Shown here: positions 661 to 48,130 of the stretch, in pieces | Position numbering within the stretch: the first letter of the stretch is position 1 | Layout: every line of letters begins with the position of its first letter | NCBI GenBank assembly: GCA_963700145.1 | Contig: OY969474.1 | Location: 3,424,001 to 3,488,000, forward strand | Origin: an uncultured Acidobacteriota bacterium | GTDB taxonomy: Bacteria > Acidobacteriota > Thermoanaerobaculia > Multivoradales > UBA5704 | Direction of reading: 5' to 3' | Length of the DNA: 64,000 nt | The notes under the pieces: model-generated | The model's database searches: none | Seen by the model: only the letters and a program-made list of their open reading frames with translations | Told to the model about the DNA's origin: nothing | Position numbers and translations under genes: made by a program

Positions 661-676
661 TGGCACCCGCCTTGCT
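661..676 (+). promoter_or_regulatory. sigma54 -24/-12 promoter
   Basis: TGGCACCCGCCTTGCT matches TGGCAC-N5-TTGC, ~40 bp upstream of ATG 718. Confidence 0.75.
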
Positions 677-7873: not shown

Positions 7874-7889
7874 TGCAAGCAATGTGCCA
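7874..7889 (-). promoter_or_regulatory. sigma54 -24/-12 promoter
   Basis: Minus strand TGGCACATTGCTTGCA, ~100 bp upstream of ATG 7775. Confidence 0.8.
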
Positions 7890-17943: not shown

Positions 17944-18301
17944 GGGGGCGTACCGGTTTCGACGGGGAACAAGAGCGGTCCGGCGACCGCGTGCCGAGTT
18001 TCTGCTCGTTAAAACGGAATCTAGTAACTGCGAACGACAACTTCGCTCTCGCGGCCTAAGAACTAGGACGTGACGTCCCGCTTGAGGCTCGGTCCGTGGC
18101 CTCTCGCGGGGCGCAACTTCAGCGGACCAAGGAGGTCACGGCTGCCTCGCGTGGACCTCCGAGATAAAGCGAGGCTGGCCGCCACGCCAGGCGCCTTCGC
18201 CCATCAACGTGGCCGGCGAGATTCGAAAGCGAAGGCTACGCACGTATACGCCGCCGGGACGCGTTTCTCGGACGTGGGTTCGACTCCCACCGCCTCCACC
18301 A
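17944..18301 (+). ncRNA. ssrA: tmRNA, tag peptide (A)NDNFALAA
   Basis: GGGGGCG 5' acceptor, GGTTCGACTCCC...CGCCTCCACCA 3' end, tag ORF 18030-18059, TATACT -10 at 17916. Confidence 0.97.
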
Positions 18302-34511: not shown

Positions 34512-35810
<1,299 letters not shown>

Positions 35811-37058: not shown

Positions 37059-37191
37059 GGCAGCGACCCACGAAGGGCTCGGGTCCTGTGCATCGGCCGC
37101 TATCGAACCTCGTCAGGCCCGGAAGGGAGCAGCGATAAGGTATGCGCGCCGAGTGCCGCAGACAAACCGGAGCCCTTCGTGGGGCGCTGCC
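37059..37191 (+). ncRNA. ffs: SRP RNA (4.5S)
   Basis: TCAGGCCCGGAAGGGAGCAGC domain IV core inside a long hairpin; upstream of dnaX; ends approximate. Confidence 0.93.
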
Positions 37192-41669: not shown

Positions 41670-42326
41670 ATGCCGTCGTTCGAAGGCCTGCTCCTCTGGT
41701 TGCTGCTGGCGCTCCTGGCCGCCGGCGCCGTCGCGCTTCTGCTCGTCTTGCGCGACCGCCGGCCGCCGGCGGTCGCCGCCGCCGCGCTCGCCCGCGGGGA
41801 CTTCGCGGCAGCGCTGGCGGCGGGGAGCGCACCGGGGGCGCCGCGCGAGGAGCGCCTCGCCGCGGCCGCCGGCGCCAAGCACCTCCTCGACTTCGACGCC
41901 GCCGGCGCCCTCCTCGCTCCGCTCCTCGCCGCCGACCCCGAGGACGGCGAGGCCTGGCTCGAAGCCGGGCTCGTCGCCGCCTACGCCGGCGACCACGACG
42001 GCGCCGAGCACGCCTTCGCGCGCGCCGCCGCGCTGCGCTCGGACCTCCTCGAGTCGATCACCCTGCACCGCGCCTGGTCGGCCCTGGCGCGCGGCGACCG
42101 GCGCGCCGCCCGCGCCCGCTTCGAGGAGGTCGAGGCACCCCTCGAGAGCAAGCTGCGCTCCGACCTGGGGCCCGGCGATCCGCTCTTCGCCGAGTGGTTC
42201 CTCCAAGCCGCCGCGCTCTGGCGCGCCGCGGGCGACGAGGAGCGCGCCGCCTGGGCCCTCGCCGCCAGCCGCGCGGCGGCCCCGGCGTCACGACTCTGGC
42301 AAGTGATCGCCGCGCCCTCCGGCTAG
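41670..42326 (+). CDS. Membrane-anchored TPR-like protein
   Basis: N-terminal TM; DPEDGEAWLEAGLV TPR-like helices. Confidence 0.65.
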   Translation: MPSFEGLLLWLLLALLAAGAVALLLVLRDRRPPAVAAAALARGDFAAALAAGSAPGAPREERLAAAAGAKHLLDFDAAGALLAPLLAADPEDGEAWLEAGLVAAYAGDHDGAEHAFARAAALRSDLLESITLHRAWSALARGDRRAARARFEEVEAPLESKLRSDLGPGDPLFAEWFLQAAALWRAAGDEERAAWALAASRAAAPASRLWQVIAAPSG

Positions 42327-42337
42327 AATCGGCGCCC

Positions 42338-43360
42338 TTGAGCATCCACAACCTGTTGCGCTCCTGGGAGCCGCTCTCCCACTTCAGCGAGGAGCAGCTC
42401 GGGCAGCTCGTGCGCTGCCTGGCGCGCAACCGCTACCCGGCCGGCACGTCGGTCCTCCAGGAGGGGGACCCGACGCTCGACGCCTATCTCGTGGCGAGCG
42501 GCAACGTGCGCATCCAGCGCCAGACCCCGTATGGCATCTTCAGCCTGGCGGTCCTCGGGCCGGGCGAGCTCTTCGGCGAGACCAGCTTCGTCGATCACGA
42601 GGCGCGCTCCGGCGACGCCCTGACGCTCGCCGAGACCGAGCTGCTGACCTTGAACCCGGTGGCCGCGGCGGCGACCCTGGAGCGCGACCCGCGCTTCGCG
42701 GTGGCGCTCTACTGGACCTTCTGGAAGAGCCTGGCGCAGAAGCTCCGGCAGACCAACCAGAAGCTCACTCACTTCTTCCCGGAGAGCGGGCTGCCGGCCG
42801 CGCCGGGGCCGCACGAGGTGCTCGACGCGAGCGGCGCGATGGCGGGGTTCCGCGTCGACTTGGCCGACAAGCGGAAGCTCTTCCAGGAGCAGCGCCTGTC
42901 GGCGATGGAGATCAACTTCCTCTCCTCGCTGTCGAAGGAGAAGAAGCTCGCCCCCAGTCAGGTGCTCTTCCGCGAGGGGGAGTCGGGCAGCGAGATGTAC
43001 GTGGTGCTCGACGGGCGGGTGATGATCAGCAAGTACATCCCCGGGGCCGGCGAGGAGGCGCTCGCCTTCCTGGAGCGCGGCGACTGGTTCGGCGAGATGG
43101 CGCTGATCGACAACCAGCCGCGCTCGGCCACCGCCAAGGCGCACGACGGCGGGGCGGTCGTGGTGACGATCCCGCGCGAGGTCGTCGAGGGCCTCCTCGA
43201 CATCCACCGCATCTCCTCGCTGCGGCTGCTCAAGATCCTCTGCAGCCTGGTAGCGCGGCGCCTCCGGGAGCTCGACGACAAGATCATCGGGTGGTTTATC
43301 CTGGCCGGCGGCCACGGGAACTGGGCCGCGGAGTACGACGCCGGGCCGGTCGCGGGCTGA
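42338..43360 (+). CDS. Tandem cyclic-nucleotide-binding domain protein
   Basis: Two cNMP domains (FGETS...ARSG; FGEMA...PRSAT); no output domain. Confidence 0.85.
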   Translation: MSIHNLLRSWEPLSHFSEEQLGQLVRCLARNRYPAGTSVLQEGDPTLDAYLVASGNVRIQRQTPYGIFSLAVLGPGELFGETSFVDHEARSGDALTLAETELLTLNPVAAAATLERDPRFAVALYWTFWKSLAQKLRQTNQKLTHFFPESGLPAAPGPHEVLDASGAMAGFRVDLADKRKLFQEQRLSAMEINFLSSLSKEKKLAPSQVLFREGESGSEMYVVLDGRVMISKYIPGAGEEALAFLERGDWFGEMALIDNQPRSATAKAHDGGAVVVTIPREVVEGLLDIHRISSLRLLKILCSLVARRLRELDDKIIGWFILAGGHGNWAAEYDAGPVAG

Positions 43361-44420
43361 CCTTCCCTTCCGACCCGAGCGCGGCCAGCACCTTCCCGAC
43401 CAGCGACGAGAGCGGCAGCGCGCAGCGCCCCTCCGCGTCGAACCAGCCCGCCTCGTTTCCCTCCGCCAAGGAGCCCGTGTCGGCGACCTCGGCGCGGTGG
43501 ACCGCCACCTCCAAGTCGCGGAAGGTGACGGCGTGGCGCACGCGGGCCGCCGGCGCGGCGAGGCGCCAGCTGCCGCCGTAGCGCCGCGCCAGGAGCGTCT
43601 CGGCGGAAACGGAGCCGCCGTCGAGCTCCGCCCAGGGCAGCTCCCAGAAACCGGCCATCAGCGGGTCGCCCTCGGACCGCCGGACGAGCAGCACCCGCCC
43701 GCGCCACTCGACGACCGCCACCGCCACGCGCCGAGCCTCGCGCGCCCGGCGCGGGCGCCGTTGGGGGTAGGGCTCGGGATTGCCCTCGGCCGCCGCCCGG
43801 CAGCCGGGGAGGAGCGGGCAGGCGGGACATCTCGGGCGGCGCGGGGTGCAGATTGTCGCGCCCAGCTCCATCAGCGCCTGGTTGCTGTCGCCCGGGCGGG
43901 CCGGGTCGAGCAGCTCGGCCGCCGCCGCCCGCAGCCGCCGGCGGGCCGCCGCGCTCTTGGGGTCCTCGGCCAATGCCAGGAACCGCGCCAGGAGGCGCTC
44001 GACGTTGCCGTCGAGGACCGGCACCGGCGCGCCGAAGCAGATGCTGGCCACCGCCGCGGAGGTGTAGTCGCCCACCCCGGCCAGCTCCCGCCACCCCTCC
44101 GGCGTCTCCGGGAAGCCGCCGCGCTCGACCACCCGCCGCGCCGCGGCATGGAGCTGCCGGGCGCGCCGGTAGTAGCCGAGCCCAGACCAGAGGGCGAGCA
44201 CCTCCCCCTCCCCGGCCGCCGCCAGCGCCTCGACCGTGGGGAACCGCTCCAGGAACCGCTGGTAATAGGGGAGAACGACGTCGACCCGCGTCTGCTGCAG
44301 CATCACCTCGGAGACCCAGACCGGATAAGGCTCGCGGGTCCGTCGCCAAGGCAGGTCGCGCCGCACCCGGTCGTACCAGCTCAGCAGCTCATGCCGCACC
44401 GCGTCAGGGTGAGTAGGCAC
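43296..44420 (-). CDS. mutY: A/G-specific adenine glycosylase
   Basis: WVSEVMLQQT, WSGLGYYRRA, DGNV, CTPRRPRCPAC, C-terminal NUDIX-like domain. Confidence 0.93.
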   Translation of the reverse strand: MPTHPDAVRHELLSWYDRVRRDLPWRRTREPYPVWVSEVMLQQTRVDVVLPYYQRFLERFPTVEALAAAGEGEVLALWSGLGYYRRARQLHAAARRVVERGGFPETPEGWRELAGVGDYTSAAVASICFGAPVPVLDGNVERLLARFLALAEDPKSAAARRRLRAAAAELLDPARPGDSNQALMELGATICTPRRPRCPACPLLPGCRAAAEGNPEPYPQRRPRRAREARRVAVAVVEWRGRVLLVRRSEGDPLMAGFWELPWAELDGGSVSAETLLARRYGGSWRLAAPAARVRHAVTFRDLEVAVHRAEVADTGSLAEGNEAGWFDAEGRCALPLSSLVGKVLAALGSEGKVSPRPARRRTPRPSSRGRRPG

Positions 44421-44484
44421 GGCCGCCAGTTTGGCACGGCGGCCGGCGCTCCGCAGCAAGGGGTGGGAACTCACAGCGAAGGGC

Positions 44485-44551
44485 GGGCAGCTCCCTCCCC
44501 CGTGCAGCGGGGGAGGGCCAGGGAGGGGGTATCGAAGTCAATGCAGGAAAG
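44485..44551 (-). repeat. REP-like palindromic element, copy 2
   Basis: Inverted identical copy of 25034-25090, followed by GTCAATGCAGGAAAG shared with the 60623 element. Confidence 0.9.
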
Positions 44552-44613
44552 CCCGCCGACTGAACCGCGTCGGAGTAGCCGCGGAAACATGCCCTGCCTC
44601 TCCGGTGCCGCCT

Positions 44614-44649
44614 AAAAAACTAGCGGCCCTCGGTTTCCCGAGGGCCGCT
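44614..44649 (-). terminator. Intrinsic terminator
   Basis: 12-bp stem AGCGGCCCTCGG-GAAA-CCGAGGGCCGCT followed by AG-T6 on minus strand. Confidence 0.88.
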
Positions 44650-44823
44650 GATTTTGAAGTATGGGGGGGAGGCCCCGTCTCTCCGGTTGGGTTTCTGAGG
44701 ATCTACCCCTGGTTTAGGGGGATGGGATTAGCTTTCTCAGAGGGTGAGACCCGAAGGGTCTCGATGTAGGATGGGTTGTTCTTGGTAGGTGAAGCCTCCC
44801 CACATACTTTCTTCTGCGTTGCC
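44614..44823 (-). ncRNA. Candidate sigma54-dependent structured sRNA (~210 nt)
   Basis: Bounded by sigma54 promoter and terminator; closing stem 44657-44673/44794-44809; two inner hairpins. Confidence 0.7.
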
Positions 44824-44833
44824 GCGTTCTCAC

Positions 44834-44849
44834 TGCAACCGCTGTGCCA
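44834..44849 (-). promoter_or_regulatory. sigma54 -24/-12 promoter
   Basis: Minus strand TGGCACAGCGGTTGCA. Confidence 0.85.
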
Positions 44850-44970
44850 GGGGTCGGGCTTCCCCGTAGGAGGCCCGTGGCGGCCCCTCCGGGTACCCGC
44901 CTGTTCATGCAATAACTGCCAAACGCTTAGTGGCATTTCTGCACGGCGGCCAGGGGGCTAAAATCGCCGG

Positions 44971-46686
44971 GTGAAGAAGCTGGTGGCGGTCTTCTTGGTG
45001 CTGGTGGCGGTGGCGGTGGCCGCCGCCGGGGCCGGCATCCTGCTGTCGCGCGGCGGGCGGAGCCTCGGCGGCCCCACGGTCCTCGTCTGGCGGCTGGACC
45101 GGACGATTCTCGAGCAGGCCCCCACCTCCGGCTTCCCCTTCGCGGCCGGCGCCACCCTCGACAGCATGGCCCAGCTCTACCCCGCCCTCCGCGCCGCGCG
45201 CGCGGACGACGGGGTCAAGGGGCTCGCCGTCTACATCCAGGGCGCCGACTTCGGCCTCGCCAAGGCGCAGGAGTTCCGCCGCCAGCTCGCCGCGCTGCGG
45301 CAGGCGGGGAAGTTCGTCGAGTGCTACCTGGAGACGGCCGGCGAGGGCTCCAACGGCACCCTCGCCTACTACCTGGCGAGCGCCTGCGAGCGCATCCACC
45401 TGGCGCCGGCCGGGGACCTCAACCTCCTCGGCCTCTTCGCCGACAGCGTCTTCCTGCGCGGTGCCCTCGAGAAGCTCAAGATCGACCCGGCCTTCAGCTC
45501 GGTCGGCCGCTACAAGAGCGCCGTCGAGTCCTTCACCCAGACCGAGCACTCGCCCGAGGCCGAGGAGGCGATGAACGCCGTCCTCGACGGCTTCTACGGG
45601 CAGCTCGTGGCCGGGATCGCCGCGGCGCGCCGTCTGCCGCCGGCCGAGGTGCGGCGCCTGATCGACGGCGCCCCCTACTCGGCCCCCGAAGCGCTGCGGC
45701 TGAAGCTGATCGACGCCCTCGCCTACCCCGACCAGTTCCGCGACCGCATCGAGGAGCGCGCCGGCGGCGAGCCGCGCCTGGTGCGGCTGCAGGACTACGG
45801 CGGCCGCGGCAACCCCTTCGCCGGCAAGACCATCGCCGTGGTCTTCGCCCTGGGGACGATCGTGCGCGGCCACGGCGGCATCGAGCCCTGGACGCAGGAG
45901 GTCTTCCTCGGCGCGGAGAGCCTGGCCGAGATCCTCTCCGACCTGGCCGACGACGGCGGCGTCGCCGCCGTCGTGCTGCGCGTCGACAGCCCGGGCGGCT
46001 CGGCCCTCGCCTCCGACTTGATCCTGCGCCAGGTGGAGCTGCTGGCGCGCGAGAAGCCGGTCGTGGTTTCGATGTCGGACGTCGCTGCCTCGGGCGGCTA
46101 CTACATCGCCGCCAAGGCGCACAAGATCGTCGCCGAGCCGGCGACCCTGACCGGCTCGATCGGGGTCTTCGGCGGCAAGCTCGTCACCCGGCGCCTGCAG
46201 GAGGAGCACCTCGGCGTCACCCACGACACGCTCAAGCGCGGCGCCAACGCCGACATCTACACGACGCTCGCGCCGTTCAGCGCCGCGCAGCAGGCGCGGG
46301 TGGACGCCGGGATGCGCCGCGTCTACGACACCTTCGTCGGCCACGTGGCGCGGGGGCGCAAGCTCTCGCCGCGCGAGGTCGAGGCGGTGGCGCAGGGGCG
46401 GGTGTGGACCGGCGAGGAGGCGCGGCGGCGGCGGCTGGTCGACGAGCTCGGCGGCTTCGACCGCGCGCTCGAGCTGGCGCGCGCCGAGGCCGGGATCGCG
46501 GCCGGCGCCGCGGTCCGCCTGGCCTTCTACCCCGAGCCGGCGAGCTTCTGGGACCTGCTCTTCGACGGCGAGGAGGAGCCGCTCCTGCCCTCCTCGCTGG
46601 TGCGCCTGCTGCGCGCCCTCGACCCGCCGGCCGCCGGCGCGCTCGAGCTGCCGCGCGAGATCGCGCGATTGGCCCGGCCGTTCTGA
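44971..46686 (+). CDS. sppA: Signal peptide peptidase SppA (protease IV, 67K type)
   Basis: YYLASAC, GRYKSA, RVDSPGGS, SMSDVAASGGYY, TGSIGV, AQGRVWTG. Confidence 0.93.
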   Translation: MKKLVAVFLVLVAVAVAAAGAGILLSRGGRSLGGPTVLVWRLDRTILEQAPTSGFPFAAGATLDSMAQLYPALRAARADDGVKGLAVYIQGADFGLAKAQEFRRQLAALRQAGKFVECYLETAGEGSNGTLAYYLASACERIHLAPAGDLNLLGLFADSVFLRGALEKLKIDPAFSSVGRYKSAVESFTQTEHSPEAEEAMNAVLDGFYGQLVAGIAAARRLPPAEVRRLIDGAPYSAPEALRLKLIDALAYPDQFRDRIEERAGGEPRLVRLQDYGGRGNPFAGKTIAVVFALGTIVRGHGGIEPWTQEVFLGAESLAEILSDLADDGGVAAVVLRVDSPGGSALASDLILRQVELLAREKPVVVSMSDVAASGGYYIAAKAHKIVAEPATLTGSIGVFGGKLVTRRLQEEHLGVTHDTLKRGANADIYTTLAPFSAAQQARVDAGMRRVYDTFVGHVARGRKLSPREVEAVAQGRVWTGEEARRRRLVDELGGFDRALELARAEAGIAAGAAVRLAFYPEPASFWDLLFDGEEEPLLPSSLVRLLRALDPPAAGALELPREIARLARPF

Positions 46687-46779
46687 ACCAGAACGCTTGA
46701 CGGGTTCGAAACGAGGGTCTATAGTCCATTTCGCTTCGTCGGCAACTCGTCTCACAGTCCCTGTTTTTTGAGCCTCTGG

Positions 46780-46800
46780 ATTTCCACAGGTTGTGGAAAG
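46780..46800. promoter_or_regulatory. Inverted pair of DnaA-box-like sites upstream of dnaA
   Basis: ATTTCCACA-ggt-TGTGGAAAG. Confidence 0.7.
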
Positions 46801-46831
46801 TCTGCGGAATTCGACTGCCTGTTGAGGCCCC

Positions 46832-48130
46832 ATGTCGCAACTCTGGAACCTGCTGAAAAGAGAGCTGCAAGAAGAACTTACGGCTGACGAGTTCGCGCGC
46901 TGGTTCCGCCCCCTGAAGGTCCGCGTCGAGGAAGAGGACCGGCTGGTCCTGACCGCCCCCGACGCCCGCGCCCTGCACACTCTGGAGTCGAGCTACCGGC
47001 CGGCCGTGGACCGCGCGATCGCGGGCCTCAAAGGGGCCGCCTATCAGGTCCTTTTCTCGCTCGAGGAGCGTGAGGAGGCGGCCCCTCAGGAGCCGTCGTC
47101 GCCGCCCGCGCTGCCGGCGCAGTTCAACCCCAGGTACACCTTCGACACCTTCGTCGTCGGCAGCTCGAACCAGTTCGCCCACGCCGCGGCGCGGGCGGTC
47201 GCCGAGAACCCGTCGAAGAGCTACAACCCGCTTTTCCTCTACGGCGGCGTCGGGCTCGGCAAGACCCATCTCCTCCACGCCATCGGTTTCCACATCCGCA
47301 AGGAGAGCCCGCAGCTGCGGGTGCTATATCTCGCGGCCGAGCAGTTCGTCAACGAGCTCATCAACTCGATCCGCTTCGACCGCATGCCGGCCTTCCGCGA
47401 GCGCTACCGCACGATCGACGTGCTGCTGATCGACGACGTGCAGTTCCTGGCCAACAAGGAGCGGACGCAGGAGGAGTTCTTCCACACCTTCAACACCCTC
47501 TACACCAGCCAGAAGCAGATCATCCTCTCGTCGGACTCCTCGCCGCGGAACATCCCGACCCTCGAGGAGCGGCTGCGCAGCCGCTTCGAGTGGGGGCTGA
47601 TCGCCGACATCCAGCCTCCCGATCTCGAGACGAAGGTCGCGATCCTCCGCCGCAAGGCCGACGTCGAGGGCACCGTTCTGCCCAACGACGTCGCCCACTT
47701 CATCGCCCAGCAGGTGCGCTCGAACATCCGCGAACTCGAAGGGTTGCTCACCCGGGTCATCGCCTTCTCGTCGCTGACCGGGAAGCCGCTCTCTCTCGAC
47801 CTCGCCAAGGAGACCCTGCGCGACATCCTGCCGGACACCGAGCGCAAGCCCGCCGCCGCCGAGATCATCAAGTTCGTGGCCCGCCACTACGGCTTGAAGG
47901 TCTCCGAGATCAAGAGCAAGGGCAACACCAAGCAGATCGCCTTCCCGCGCCAGGTGGCGATGTACGCCCTGAAGCGCCTAACCGACCTCTCCTACCCCGA
48001 GATCGGCAAGCAGTTCAACGACAAGCACCACTCGACGGTCATGTACTCGGTCGAGAAGATCCAGCAGCTCCGCGACGGCGACCCCGAGATCGACAAGGTG
48101 CTGGCCTCGATCGAGCAGCACTTCTCCTGA
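46832..48130 (+). CDS. dnaA: Chromosomal replication initiator
   Basis: YNPLFLYGGVGLGKTHL, LIDDVQF, RLRSRFEWGL, domain IV HHSTV. Confidence 0.97.
   Translation: MSQLWNLLKRELQEELTADEFARWFRPLKVRVEEEDRLVLTAPDARALHTLESSYRPAVDRAIAGLKGAAYQVLFSLEEREEAAPQEPSSPPALPAQFNPRYTFDTFVVGSSNQFAHAAARAVAENPSKSYNPLFLYGGVGLGKTHLLHAIGFHIRKESPQLRVLYLAAEQFVNELINSIRFDRMPAFRERYRTIDVLLIDDVQFLANKERTQEEFFHTFNTLYTSQKQIILSSDSSPRNIPTLEERLRSRFEWGLIADIQPPDLETKVAILRRKADVEGTVLPNDVAHFIAQQVRSNIRELEGLLTRVIAFSSLTGKPLSLDLAKETLRDILPDTERKPAAAEIIKFVARHYGLKVSEIKSKGNTKQIAFPRQVAMYALKRLTDLSYPEIGKQFNDKHHSTVMYSVEKIQQLRDGDPEIDKVLASIEQHFS

Follow-up and report, generated by a model that had tools for sequence, protein, structure and literature searches.

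What occupies the gap between mutY and sppA in the stretch of Acidobacteriota DNA studied here, and what might its product do? The stretch (hereafter the window) comprises 64,000 nucleotides (nt) of contig OY969474.1 from an uncultured soil bacterium whose genome, 5.46 Mb in size and 95% complete, has a G+C content of 71.5%; coordinates below 64,000 refer to the window. The original prediction, made from the DNA letters, placed in this gap a novel small RNA (sRNA) with a sigma-54 promoter and a multi-branched fold. On the minus strand the locus contains, in order, a dyad, a sigma-54 promoter, an RNA that folds into three helices and a strong terminator, with the RNA gene lying upstream of mutY and oriented away from sppA and dnaA. 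The evidence set out below strongly supports a gene in its own right whose product is a structured non-coding RNA of about 210 nt. Every feature that had been predicted was found in its place on the minus strand, and the general picture of a distinct gene for a branched non-coding RNA, read from a sigma-54-type promoter, is supported.

The promoter, TGGCACAGCGGTTGCA (44849-44834, minus strand), is a perfect match to the -24/-12 element with the correct spacing, bearing out the consensus promoter that had been called. Three matches to TGGCAC-N5-TTGCW occur in the 64-kb window, where shuffles predict 0.02, and the looser TGGCA[CT]-N5-TTGC[ATC] is matched 21 times in the whole 5.46-Mb genome. The two other perfect matches in the window are at 661-676 (plus strand) and 7874-7889 (minus strand). 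No sigma-70-like site was found in 44000-45500. The motif recurs with the RNA: GG[CT]A[CT]-N5-[TCA]TGC is present directly upstream of 59 of the 60 copies with enough flanking sequence, and all 20 homologs from other families have an upstream -24/-12 motif. The genome has one rpoN gene and about 15 proteins carrying a sigma-54 activator domain (PF00158 gives 19 matches), and ten activator proteins have both the GAFTGA/GSFTGA and the Walker A motif. Initiation by sigma-54 RNA polymerase at the -24/-12 promoter upstream of the RNA is strongly supported. Judged by the usual spacing to the GC of the -12 element, the first nucleotide is predicted to be G 44823, and the predicted primary transcript would run from there to the U6 tract at its 3' end (44823-44614, minus strand; about 210 nt).

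The segment 44825-44614 (212 nt) has a minimum free energy (MFE) of -92 kcal/mol compared with -60.5 +/- 4.6 kcal/mol for shuffled sequences (z = -6.8), none of the 200 shuffles being as good. Its interior is a three-way junction formed by the helices P1, P2 and P3. P1 joins both ends of the RNA and in the MFE fold pairs a 5' arm at 44809-44791 with a 3' arm at 44676-44657 (both minus strand). It consists of an 11-bp core, GGGGAGGCUUC (44801-44791) with GGGGCCUCCCC (44676-44666), and a 7-bp genus-specific extension between 44809-44803 and CAUACUU at 44663-44657; this is the closing stem put at about 15 bp in the original prediction. P2 is the predicted hairpin GAGACCC-UUC-GGGUCUC (44762-44746, minus strand), seen both in the MFE fold and by covariation. 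P3, CCCCU-AAACC-AGGGG (44720-44706, minus strand; arms 44720-44716 and 44710-44706), is followed by a conserved UAGAUCC. The CCCCU/AGGGG pairing is present and conserved as had been proposed, but the outer UCUGAG/CUCAGA helix drawn around it holds at genus level only and falls outside the family consensus; a relative in the same genus (G002) shows UCUCUC there. Downstream of P1, at 44649-44614 (minus strand), is the predicted intrinsic terminator, a 12-bp stem with 10 G-C pairs, a 4-nt GAAA loop and U6.

The same structure is found across the homologs. Among 61 aligned copies standard pairs make up 92.3% of cells, and both sides have changed in 19 of the 23 pairs, counts that lean towards the structure since this alignment was fitted to a covariance model. 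None of 500 shuffles reached these values, and controls with slid partners pair in 43-71% of cells. Nine of the 11 pairs of the P1 core are changed on both sides, as are all seven pairs of P2 (of GAGAUC/GAUCUC type; 93.4% of cells paired), while P3, the sequence of which is mostly conserved, is paired in 88.9% of cells with three of its five pairs double-changed. P1 is lengthened in each lineage by further lineage-specific pairs, and in diverged homologs it is replaced by an unrelated complementary pair, ACGGUAAGU/ACUUACCGU, which supports the structure because it is independent of the covariance model. A fixed mimic of a Shine-Dalgarno (SD)/anti-SD pair was also considered for P1 and is ruled out, since P1 covaries completely in the diverged relatives and is therefore structural. 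For P3, RNAalifold run on a MAFFT alignment paired AGGGG with the ACCCU that follows P2 rather than with the local CCCCU. Covariation cannot tell these pairings apart; the local hairpin was kept because copies lacking ACCCU still have it, and by eye it fits more copies.

Displayed between the helices is a short repeated motif, CCNNCC. In the window copy, on the minus strand, it occurs as CCUACC (44784-44789) and CCAUCC (44769-44774), both unpaired, as a second CCAUCC (44720-44725) that abuts the 5' arm of P3, and as CCAACC (44685-44690), which ends a few bases short of the 3' arm of P1. The three A(A/U)CCCA(U/A)CC repeats described from the single sequence are present, and CCNNCC is the form that they take family-wide. 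The 61 copies hold 214 such motifs in their unpaired segments, about 3.5 per RNA, compared with 65 +/- 7.3 in shuffled sequences (maximum 82 in 300 shuffles). The CC pairs keep their positions, one following the 5' arm of P1, one ahead of P2 and one immediately ahead of the 3' arm of P1. The two inner bases are variable, apart from those of the last motif, which almost always reads CCAACC, the commonest form overall (79 of 214) and at this position the best-conserved unpaired element of the family (at least 80% in the 61-copy consensus). The unpaired interior as a whole is composed of 37% C, 31.5% A, 20% U and 11% G, a C-to-G ratio of 3.3, and its longest strongly conserved stretches are of 6-7 nt.

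Searching with BLASTN detected relatives in 19 of 24 genomes of the same taxonomic family and in none of 16 from other families of the order. The confinement to one family that this would suggest was overturned by a covariance model built on 37 aligned copies and the three helices; a second model was built from 61 copies. The first model matches the window exactly once, at 44664-44822 (139.1 bits; a 159-nt core), and recovered 42 copies in 21 sources. By this measure 90 of 92 genomes of the same family are positive, with one to three tandem copies, the number being typical of the genus, and so are 111 of 151 genomes of the order, a tally that includes one unpublished genome (G216) used nowhere else. 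In a sample of the phylum four of 151 genomes were positive, all four belonging to the same order, with none among eight from other orders of the class or 139 from other classes, and the second model gave no match in 114 genomes of other orders of the class. Such negatives are soft, as weak matches in two model-negative genomes (E = 0.002 and 0.012) proved to be true, diverged homologs with a sigma-54 promoter upstream, dnaA upstream and mutY downstream, and recognisable P2 and P3. A possible further homolog is a still weaker match (E = 0.06), from a genus scoring 0/21, in which a sigma-54 promoter is accompanied by a perfect closing helix of 11 bp and by CCAACC ahead of the 3' arm; its interior differs and mutY is not adjacent. 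An exact-pattern scan of species-representative genomes gave 43 loci, all in metagenome-assembled genomes (MAGs), the titles of which name Thermoanaerobaculia (25), Thermoanaerobaculaceae or Thermoanaerobaculum (3), Acidobacteriota or Acidobacteria (10), Holophagales (4) and Gemmatimonadales (1). A quick tree sorts the copies of different genera by their place in the array and puts the window's single copy with the mutY-proximal ones; the alignment is short, so that the grouping is suggestive only. Paralog types differ mainly in their single-stranded segments. That the gene is one paralog type of an old RNA family spread across one order of Acidobacteriota is strongly supported. In genomes of family f5 (G028, G039, G124, G170, G196 and others) two unlinked copies of the RNA are found, on different contigs or far apart.

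The family is also kept in place. mutY lies downstream of the RNA in all 20 loci examined from the same family and in 15 of 20 from other families, being absent from the flank in the remaining five. On the other side dnaA lies within 1.5 kb and points away from the RNA in 11 of the 20 loci of other families, and sppA adjoins the RNA in six of the 20 loci of the same family and four of the 20 others. In the genus of the window sppA sits between the RNA and dnaA, and sppA or another gene is inserted there elsewhere too. Retention at one chromosomal spot, with dnaA pointing away on one side and one or more RNA genes leading towards mutY on the other, is strongly supported.

The RNA is represented in environmental transcript data. 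Of 24 listed sequencing runs that hold part of the stretch, 16 are recorded as RNA, mostly soil metatranscriptomes. Contigs cover the body of the RNA in all four runs examined, which come from four studies: 44666-44810 in run X6, 44666-44802 in X10, 44648-44800 in X2 and 44674-44856 in X1, the last reaching through the promoter without a mismatch. At 44811 and 44803, respectively, the contigs of X6 and X10 run on into what we take to be Illumina adapter sequence; the cDNA therefore ended 13-21 nt inside the predicted start, at what may be fragment ends or processed ends. The shared contig end at 44664-44666 was considered as the 3' end of the RNA and set aside, as it falls where the conserved core stops and the relatives begin to differ. 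Contig cover on mutY, the terminator and sppA was little or none in the examined runs and is not counted as a finding. That the body of the RNA is found in soil RNA libraries is strongly supported.

Upstream of the promoter is the 36-bp dyad TGCAGAAATGCCA-N9-TGGCAGTTATTGCA (44943-44908, minus strand), a presumed enhancer centred about 75 bp upstream of the -24 element and about 100 bp upstream of the start. When the five genomes of the genus are aligned, the dyad and the promoter stand out as the only two conserved islands of an otherwise variable upstream region. The half-site TGCAGAAATGCC occurs once in the whole genome, and of eight loose dyads in the genome only that of the RNA gene lies within 400 bp of a sigma-54 motif. 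The dyad is likely to be the site of an enhancer-binding sigma-54 activator, as had been suggested of it, and judged from its sequence context the uniqueness of the half-site and its proximity to the sigma-54 motif look like a dedicated activator-RNA circuit. A related element, TG(C/T)AGAAA(T/C)GCC...TT(G/T)(C/T)A, with the same 36-bp span, precedes the first copy of the array in several other genera; later copies of the array have the promoter and no dyad-like element. No similar dyad was seen by pattern search in the loci of other families. One genus (loci L009, L011 and L018) has a conserved AT-rich TTCAATGTATAGATATCAAAGGATTTATTCGG in place of the dyad, some 80-100 nt upstream of the promoter of the first copy, which may perhaps be an IHF-type bending site with a dyad-like element further upstream.

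Several comparisons bear on which activator this might be. None of the flanks of 105 loci encodes an AAA+ activator domain (tblastn with 14 AAA+ domains), and in 18 wider loci activator genes were found only at L117, where two lie about 3 and 6 kb from a second, unlinked copy of the RNA, and at L118, with one at the edge, about 8 kb away. One candidate of the window genome (972790-974184) has orthologs of 66-74% identity in all five genomes tested, and another (2887276-2888577) has orthologs of 60-67% identity in three of the five and none in two g18 genomes. This presence and absence comparison covers two of about ten candidates in five genomes; it was left without a basis once its supposedly negative genomes proved to hold diverged homologs of the RNA, and it has little power because g18 has few activators. 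Local sigma-54 motifs near the activator genes did not discriminate between the candidates.

No known RNA family accounts for the locus. At gathering score the 4227 models of Rfam 15, among them 6S, Pxr and Acido-1, give four matches in the window and none at the locus; the four are a tmRNA (17944-18301, plus strand; 160.8 bits), a small SRP RNA (37077-37175, plus strand; 64.2 bits) and two 87-nt tRNAs (35606-35692 and 35724-35810, minus strand). With the threshold relaxed to E <= 10, the interval 44500-45000 gives 11 weak matches, chiefly of terminator-like kind and all below gathering score, the best scoring 22.9 against a required 39 bits and touching the terminator only; those to BjrC68 and sX12 are confined to the terminator hairpin. 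Sixteen homolog loci gave no Rfam 15 match, and a full-text literature search found no paper on this RNA. The family is absent from Rfam 15 and is a new family within a known kind, the sigma-54-dependent sRNAs such as Pxr, Qrr and CrcZ, and the novelty claimed for it holds.

The locus also contains the 22-codon open reading frame (ORF) that had been noted at 44805-44737 (minus strand), with its ATG inside the closing helix. An RNA that encodes the corresponding peptide, MWGGFTYQEQPILHRDPSGLTL, would start from an ATG as required, and yet this seems extremely improbable. In the five genomes of the genus insertions and deletions shift the frame, giving products of 17-34 residues that are unrelated after the first eight or so, and an ATG abuts P1 in only six of 61 copies. 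The frame is present and is not a gene; the peptide as a conserved feature is refuted by this divergence within the genus, and what is conserved is the structure of the RNA, not the alternative of a peptide.

How the RNA acts has to be judged from its architecture. Our preferred reading, which we hold tentatively over that of a base-pairing sRNA, is of a protein-binding decoy. The RNA would act in trans as a multivalent decoy or scaffold, in which the three-helix frame holds three to four CCNNCC motifs open and single-stranded. These motifs would bind, and so titrate, a protein that recognises C-rich single-stranded RNA, and how much of that protein is free would thus depend on the signal to which the sigma-54 activator responds. 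The points in favour are the number of motifs (about 3.5 per RNA), in which the CC pairs stay in place and only the inner bases change, the locking of both ends of the RNA in P1, the shortness of the conserved unpaired stretches (6-7 nt), and single-stranded joining segments with much C and A and little G. The closed ends, the multiplicity of the motif and the tandem copies are the reasons why a decoy fits better than an sRNA that pairs through a seed.

Such an sRNA is nevertheless a possible, if rather less probable, answer. With the help of Hfq, its seeds CCAACC, UAGAUCC, ACCCUC and CCCCU would pair with G-rich stretches of mRNAs, partly at the ribosome-binding site (RBS), changing translation or decay, and the paralogs would have partly different sets of targets, as in Qrr or Pxr. 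Hfq is encoded in the genome (57.4 bits), the window copy ends in a strong hairpin with U6, the paralog types differ chiefly where they are single-stranded, and most known sigma-54-dependent sRNAs pair with mRNAs (Qrr, GlmZ, NrsZ). A number of points weigh against the decoy. Most known bacterial sRNAs act by base pairing, and repeated C-rich seeds occur in such sRNAs too. ACCCUC, after P2, and CCCCU, in P3, are anti-SD-like, and their complements are enriched in the RBS zone over an upstream control zone (GAGGGU 36 versus 5; AGGGG 218 versus 49), in counts inflated by the choice of gene starts partly on SD-like words. CsrA, ProQ/FinO and Ro (TROVE) were not found in the 95%-complete genome, and Hfq is present but A-rich motifs of the Hfq type are not conserved, three ARN repeats occurring in seven of 59 promoter-bearing copies; such repeats in the 5' leader were for this reason rejected as a family feature. 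The library evidence consists of contigs, from which neither the ends nor the level of the RNA can be read, and the X1 contig that passes through the promoter points to carried-over DNA or to a start further upstream. In some genera transcription may read on into mutY, since only 24 of 60 copies pass a crude test for a terminator (a hairpin with U4) and the copy nearest mutY often fails it. This same count also tells against base pairing, as do the lack of any conserved unpaired stretch longer than 6-7 nt and the variable inner bases of the repeated motif. GGUUGG, the complement of CCAACC, is rare at the RBS, with five occurrences in the RBS zones of 2954 crude gene starts compared with 25 in the upstream control zone, which disfavours the anti-SD role that had been suggested for the repeats. 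Nor did the C-rich segments predict targets in excess of shuffled seeds: RNAduplex energies for the three unpaired segments against the 2954 crude start regions of the window genome had tails no better than those of four shuffles each, searches for complements of UAGAUCC and CCAACC gave no striking site, and pairing of the RNA with the dnaA leader (24 pairs in 17 loci) gave z values from -3.8 to +1.65, mostly near 0, with no common site. These scans are crude, with one genome, no accessibility term and rough starts, and their silence is weak evidence against pairing.

A mainly cis-acting role seems unlikely. Here the RNA would be the processed 5' leader of sigma-54 transcripts that read through into mutY, or divergent transcription beside the dnaA promoter and its DnaA boxes would modulate dnaA expression or the initiation of replication. 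The chief support is that copies nearest mutY are often without a canonical terminator, and it gains from the position of mutY downstream in the same orientation (20/20 and 15/20 loci) and of dnaA as divergent neighbour (11/20 loci of other families) with an inverted DnaA-box-like pair between. In the window, however, the 12-bp terminator with U6 stands 215 nt before mutY, and in relatives a separate promoter-like element immediately precedes the mutY start; mutY is missing from the flank in five of 20 distant loci, and a second copy of the RNA, unlinked to the first, is present in some genomes. Moreover, sppA or another gene separates the RNA from dnaA in the genus of the window and in others, and the conservation of structure and motifs across the order exceeds what a leader would need. 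More doubtful still is a specific and bolder form of the preferred decoy reading, with the RNA as a sigma-54-induced decoy acting in trans on a core C-rich-RNA-binding factor not known to be under sRNA control, for which the boldest candidate is the termination factor Rho. Primary sites of Rho bind YC dinucleotides in C-rich, G-poor RNA. If this were true, expression of one to three tandem copies would readjust termination across the genome, or some other global process, in soil Acidobacteria, and the fixed place beside dnaA would tie the switch to growth state. The composition of the interior could also be read the other way round, as a rut-like loading site at which Rho ends a functionless or spurious sigma-54 transcript. 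The C-to-G ratio of 3.3 in the unpaired interior and the many copies without an intrinsic terminator fit such a site, which is very improbable all the same, as it leaves unexplained the compensatory changes in three helices, the fixed positions of the motifs, the retention of one to three paralogs across the order and the presumed dedicated enhancer.

In architecture the closest analogue is Pxr. Pxr of Myxococcus and Cystobacter has an apparent sigma-54 promoter and a fold of several stem-loops, and is confined to one lineage and to a fixed intergenic position flanked by the activator gene nla19 and a gene for an NADH dehydrogenase; in some genera there are tandem paralogs, each with its own sigma-54 promoter, that diverge more than orthologs do (PMC5568312, which also mentions Qrr). 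The partner or targets of Pxr are described as still to be found (PMC11928866). On these accounts the likeness extends to the sigma-54 promoter, the multi-stem fold, the restriction to a lineage, the fixed spot, the tandem paralogs each with a promoter and the greater divergence of paralogs than of orthologs. Pxr differs in its neighbours, adjoining nla19 where the acidobacterial RNA adjoins mutY, sppA and dnaA, and the acidobacterial RNA is longer (a 159-nt core), joins its ends in a long closing helix and belongs to another phylum. Rfam holds a Pxr model, and this gave no match in 44500-45000 even at E <= 10.

Other sigma-54-dependent RNAs are more distant. Qrr1-5 of Vibrio, with the activator LuxO, share the dependence on sigma-54 and the presence of several paralogs, which have partly divergent roles. 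They are Hfq-dependent RNAs of about 100 nt with a long conserved seed and dispersed paralogs, whereas the acidobacterial copies are tandem, and they have neither a closing helix nor repeated CCNNCC. CrcZ and CrcY of Pseudomonas (activator CbrB) and GlmY of enterobacteria (GlrR) are sigma-54-dependent RNAs that act as protein decoys and have tandem or paralogous copies; GlmY binds RapZ by mimicking GlmZ, and on CrcZ several short single-stranded A-rich motifs (AANAANAA) on a structured RNA bind Hfq/Crc. A sigma-54-dependent decoy with multiple short single-stranded motifs is the likeness on which our favoured working model draws. There is no sequence likeness to these RNAs; the acidobacterial motif is CCNNCC, and A-rich triplet repeats occur in only seven of 59 copies. 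CsrB/RsmZ sponges, 6S RNA and Y RNA are abundant structured RNAs that hold proteins, and 6S and Y RNA join their ends in a long helix. The acidobacterial RNA has CCNNCC in place of the GGA loops of CsrB/RsmZ, in a genome where CsrA was not found; it gives no 6S match and forms a three-way junction rather than a rod with a central bubble; and, unlike the case of Y RNA, no Ro/TROVE gene was found in the 95%-complete genome.

Acidobacteriota are among the most abundant bacteria of soil, and to our knowledge next to nothing is known about their RNA regulators. The regulatory module, in which a presumed dedicated enhancer and a sigma-54 promoter precede a structured RNA, has strong comparative support and is retained by almost all the genomes sampled from the family and by the majority of those from the order. 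It yields a ready covariance model for annotating these MAGs and offers a way into one of the sigma-54 signalling pathways of uncultured bacteria, and the repeated display of CCNNCC may point to an RNA-protein pairing not yet described. Should the RNA prove to be an ordinary base-pairing sRNA, it would still be the first well-supported sRNA family for the lineage.

Of the neighbouring genes, mutY and sppA were correctly named in the original prediction, with the placement of mutY corrected to the minus strand at 43296-44399, downstream of the RNA. Its product matches the Pfam families HhH-GPD (3.3e-22) and NUDIX_4 (2e-10), and its start, a GTG at 44399, was set by likeness to relatives; it is the conserved downstream neighbour in the same orientation. 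In relatives (L006-L020) mutY looks leaderless, with a -35-like TTGGCN word inside a palindrome, GCCAAATTGGC, a spacer of about 17 nt, a -10-like TATACT, TAGAAT or TATAAT and then 6 nt before the GTG or ATG start. In the genus of the window the -10-like word is degraded to CACCCT (44400-44440, minus strand). sppA (Peptidase_S49; 44971-46686, plus strand) is the divergent upstream neighbour of the RNA, and dnaA (46832-48130, plus strand) lies beyond it in the same direction. Directly upstream of dnaA, at about 46774-46792 (plus strand), is an inverted pair of DnaA-box-like words (TTTCCACAGGTTGTGGAAA), and in many relatives (L045-L061, L137 and L138) this pair lies between dnaA and the RNA gene. 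No perfect TT[AT]TCCACA box was found in genome positions 3460000-3480000, and the cumulative GC skew of the whole genome (G000) has no clean minimum or maximum by which an origin could be placed. Two long ORFs, 43497-44615 (plus strand) and 44905-46980 (minus strand), are antisense to mutY and sppA, respectively, a usual artefact at this G+C content, and the first of them matched no Pfam family. Just past mutY, at 42194-43360 (plus strand), is encoded a protein with two cyclic-nucleotide-binding domains (PF00027, 1.8e-37).

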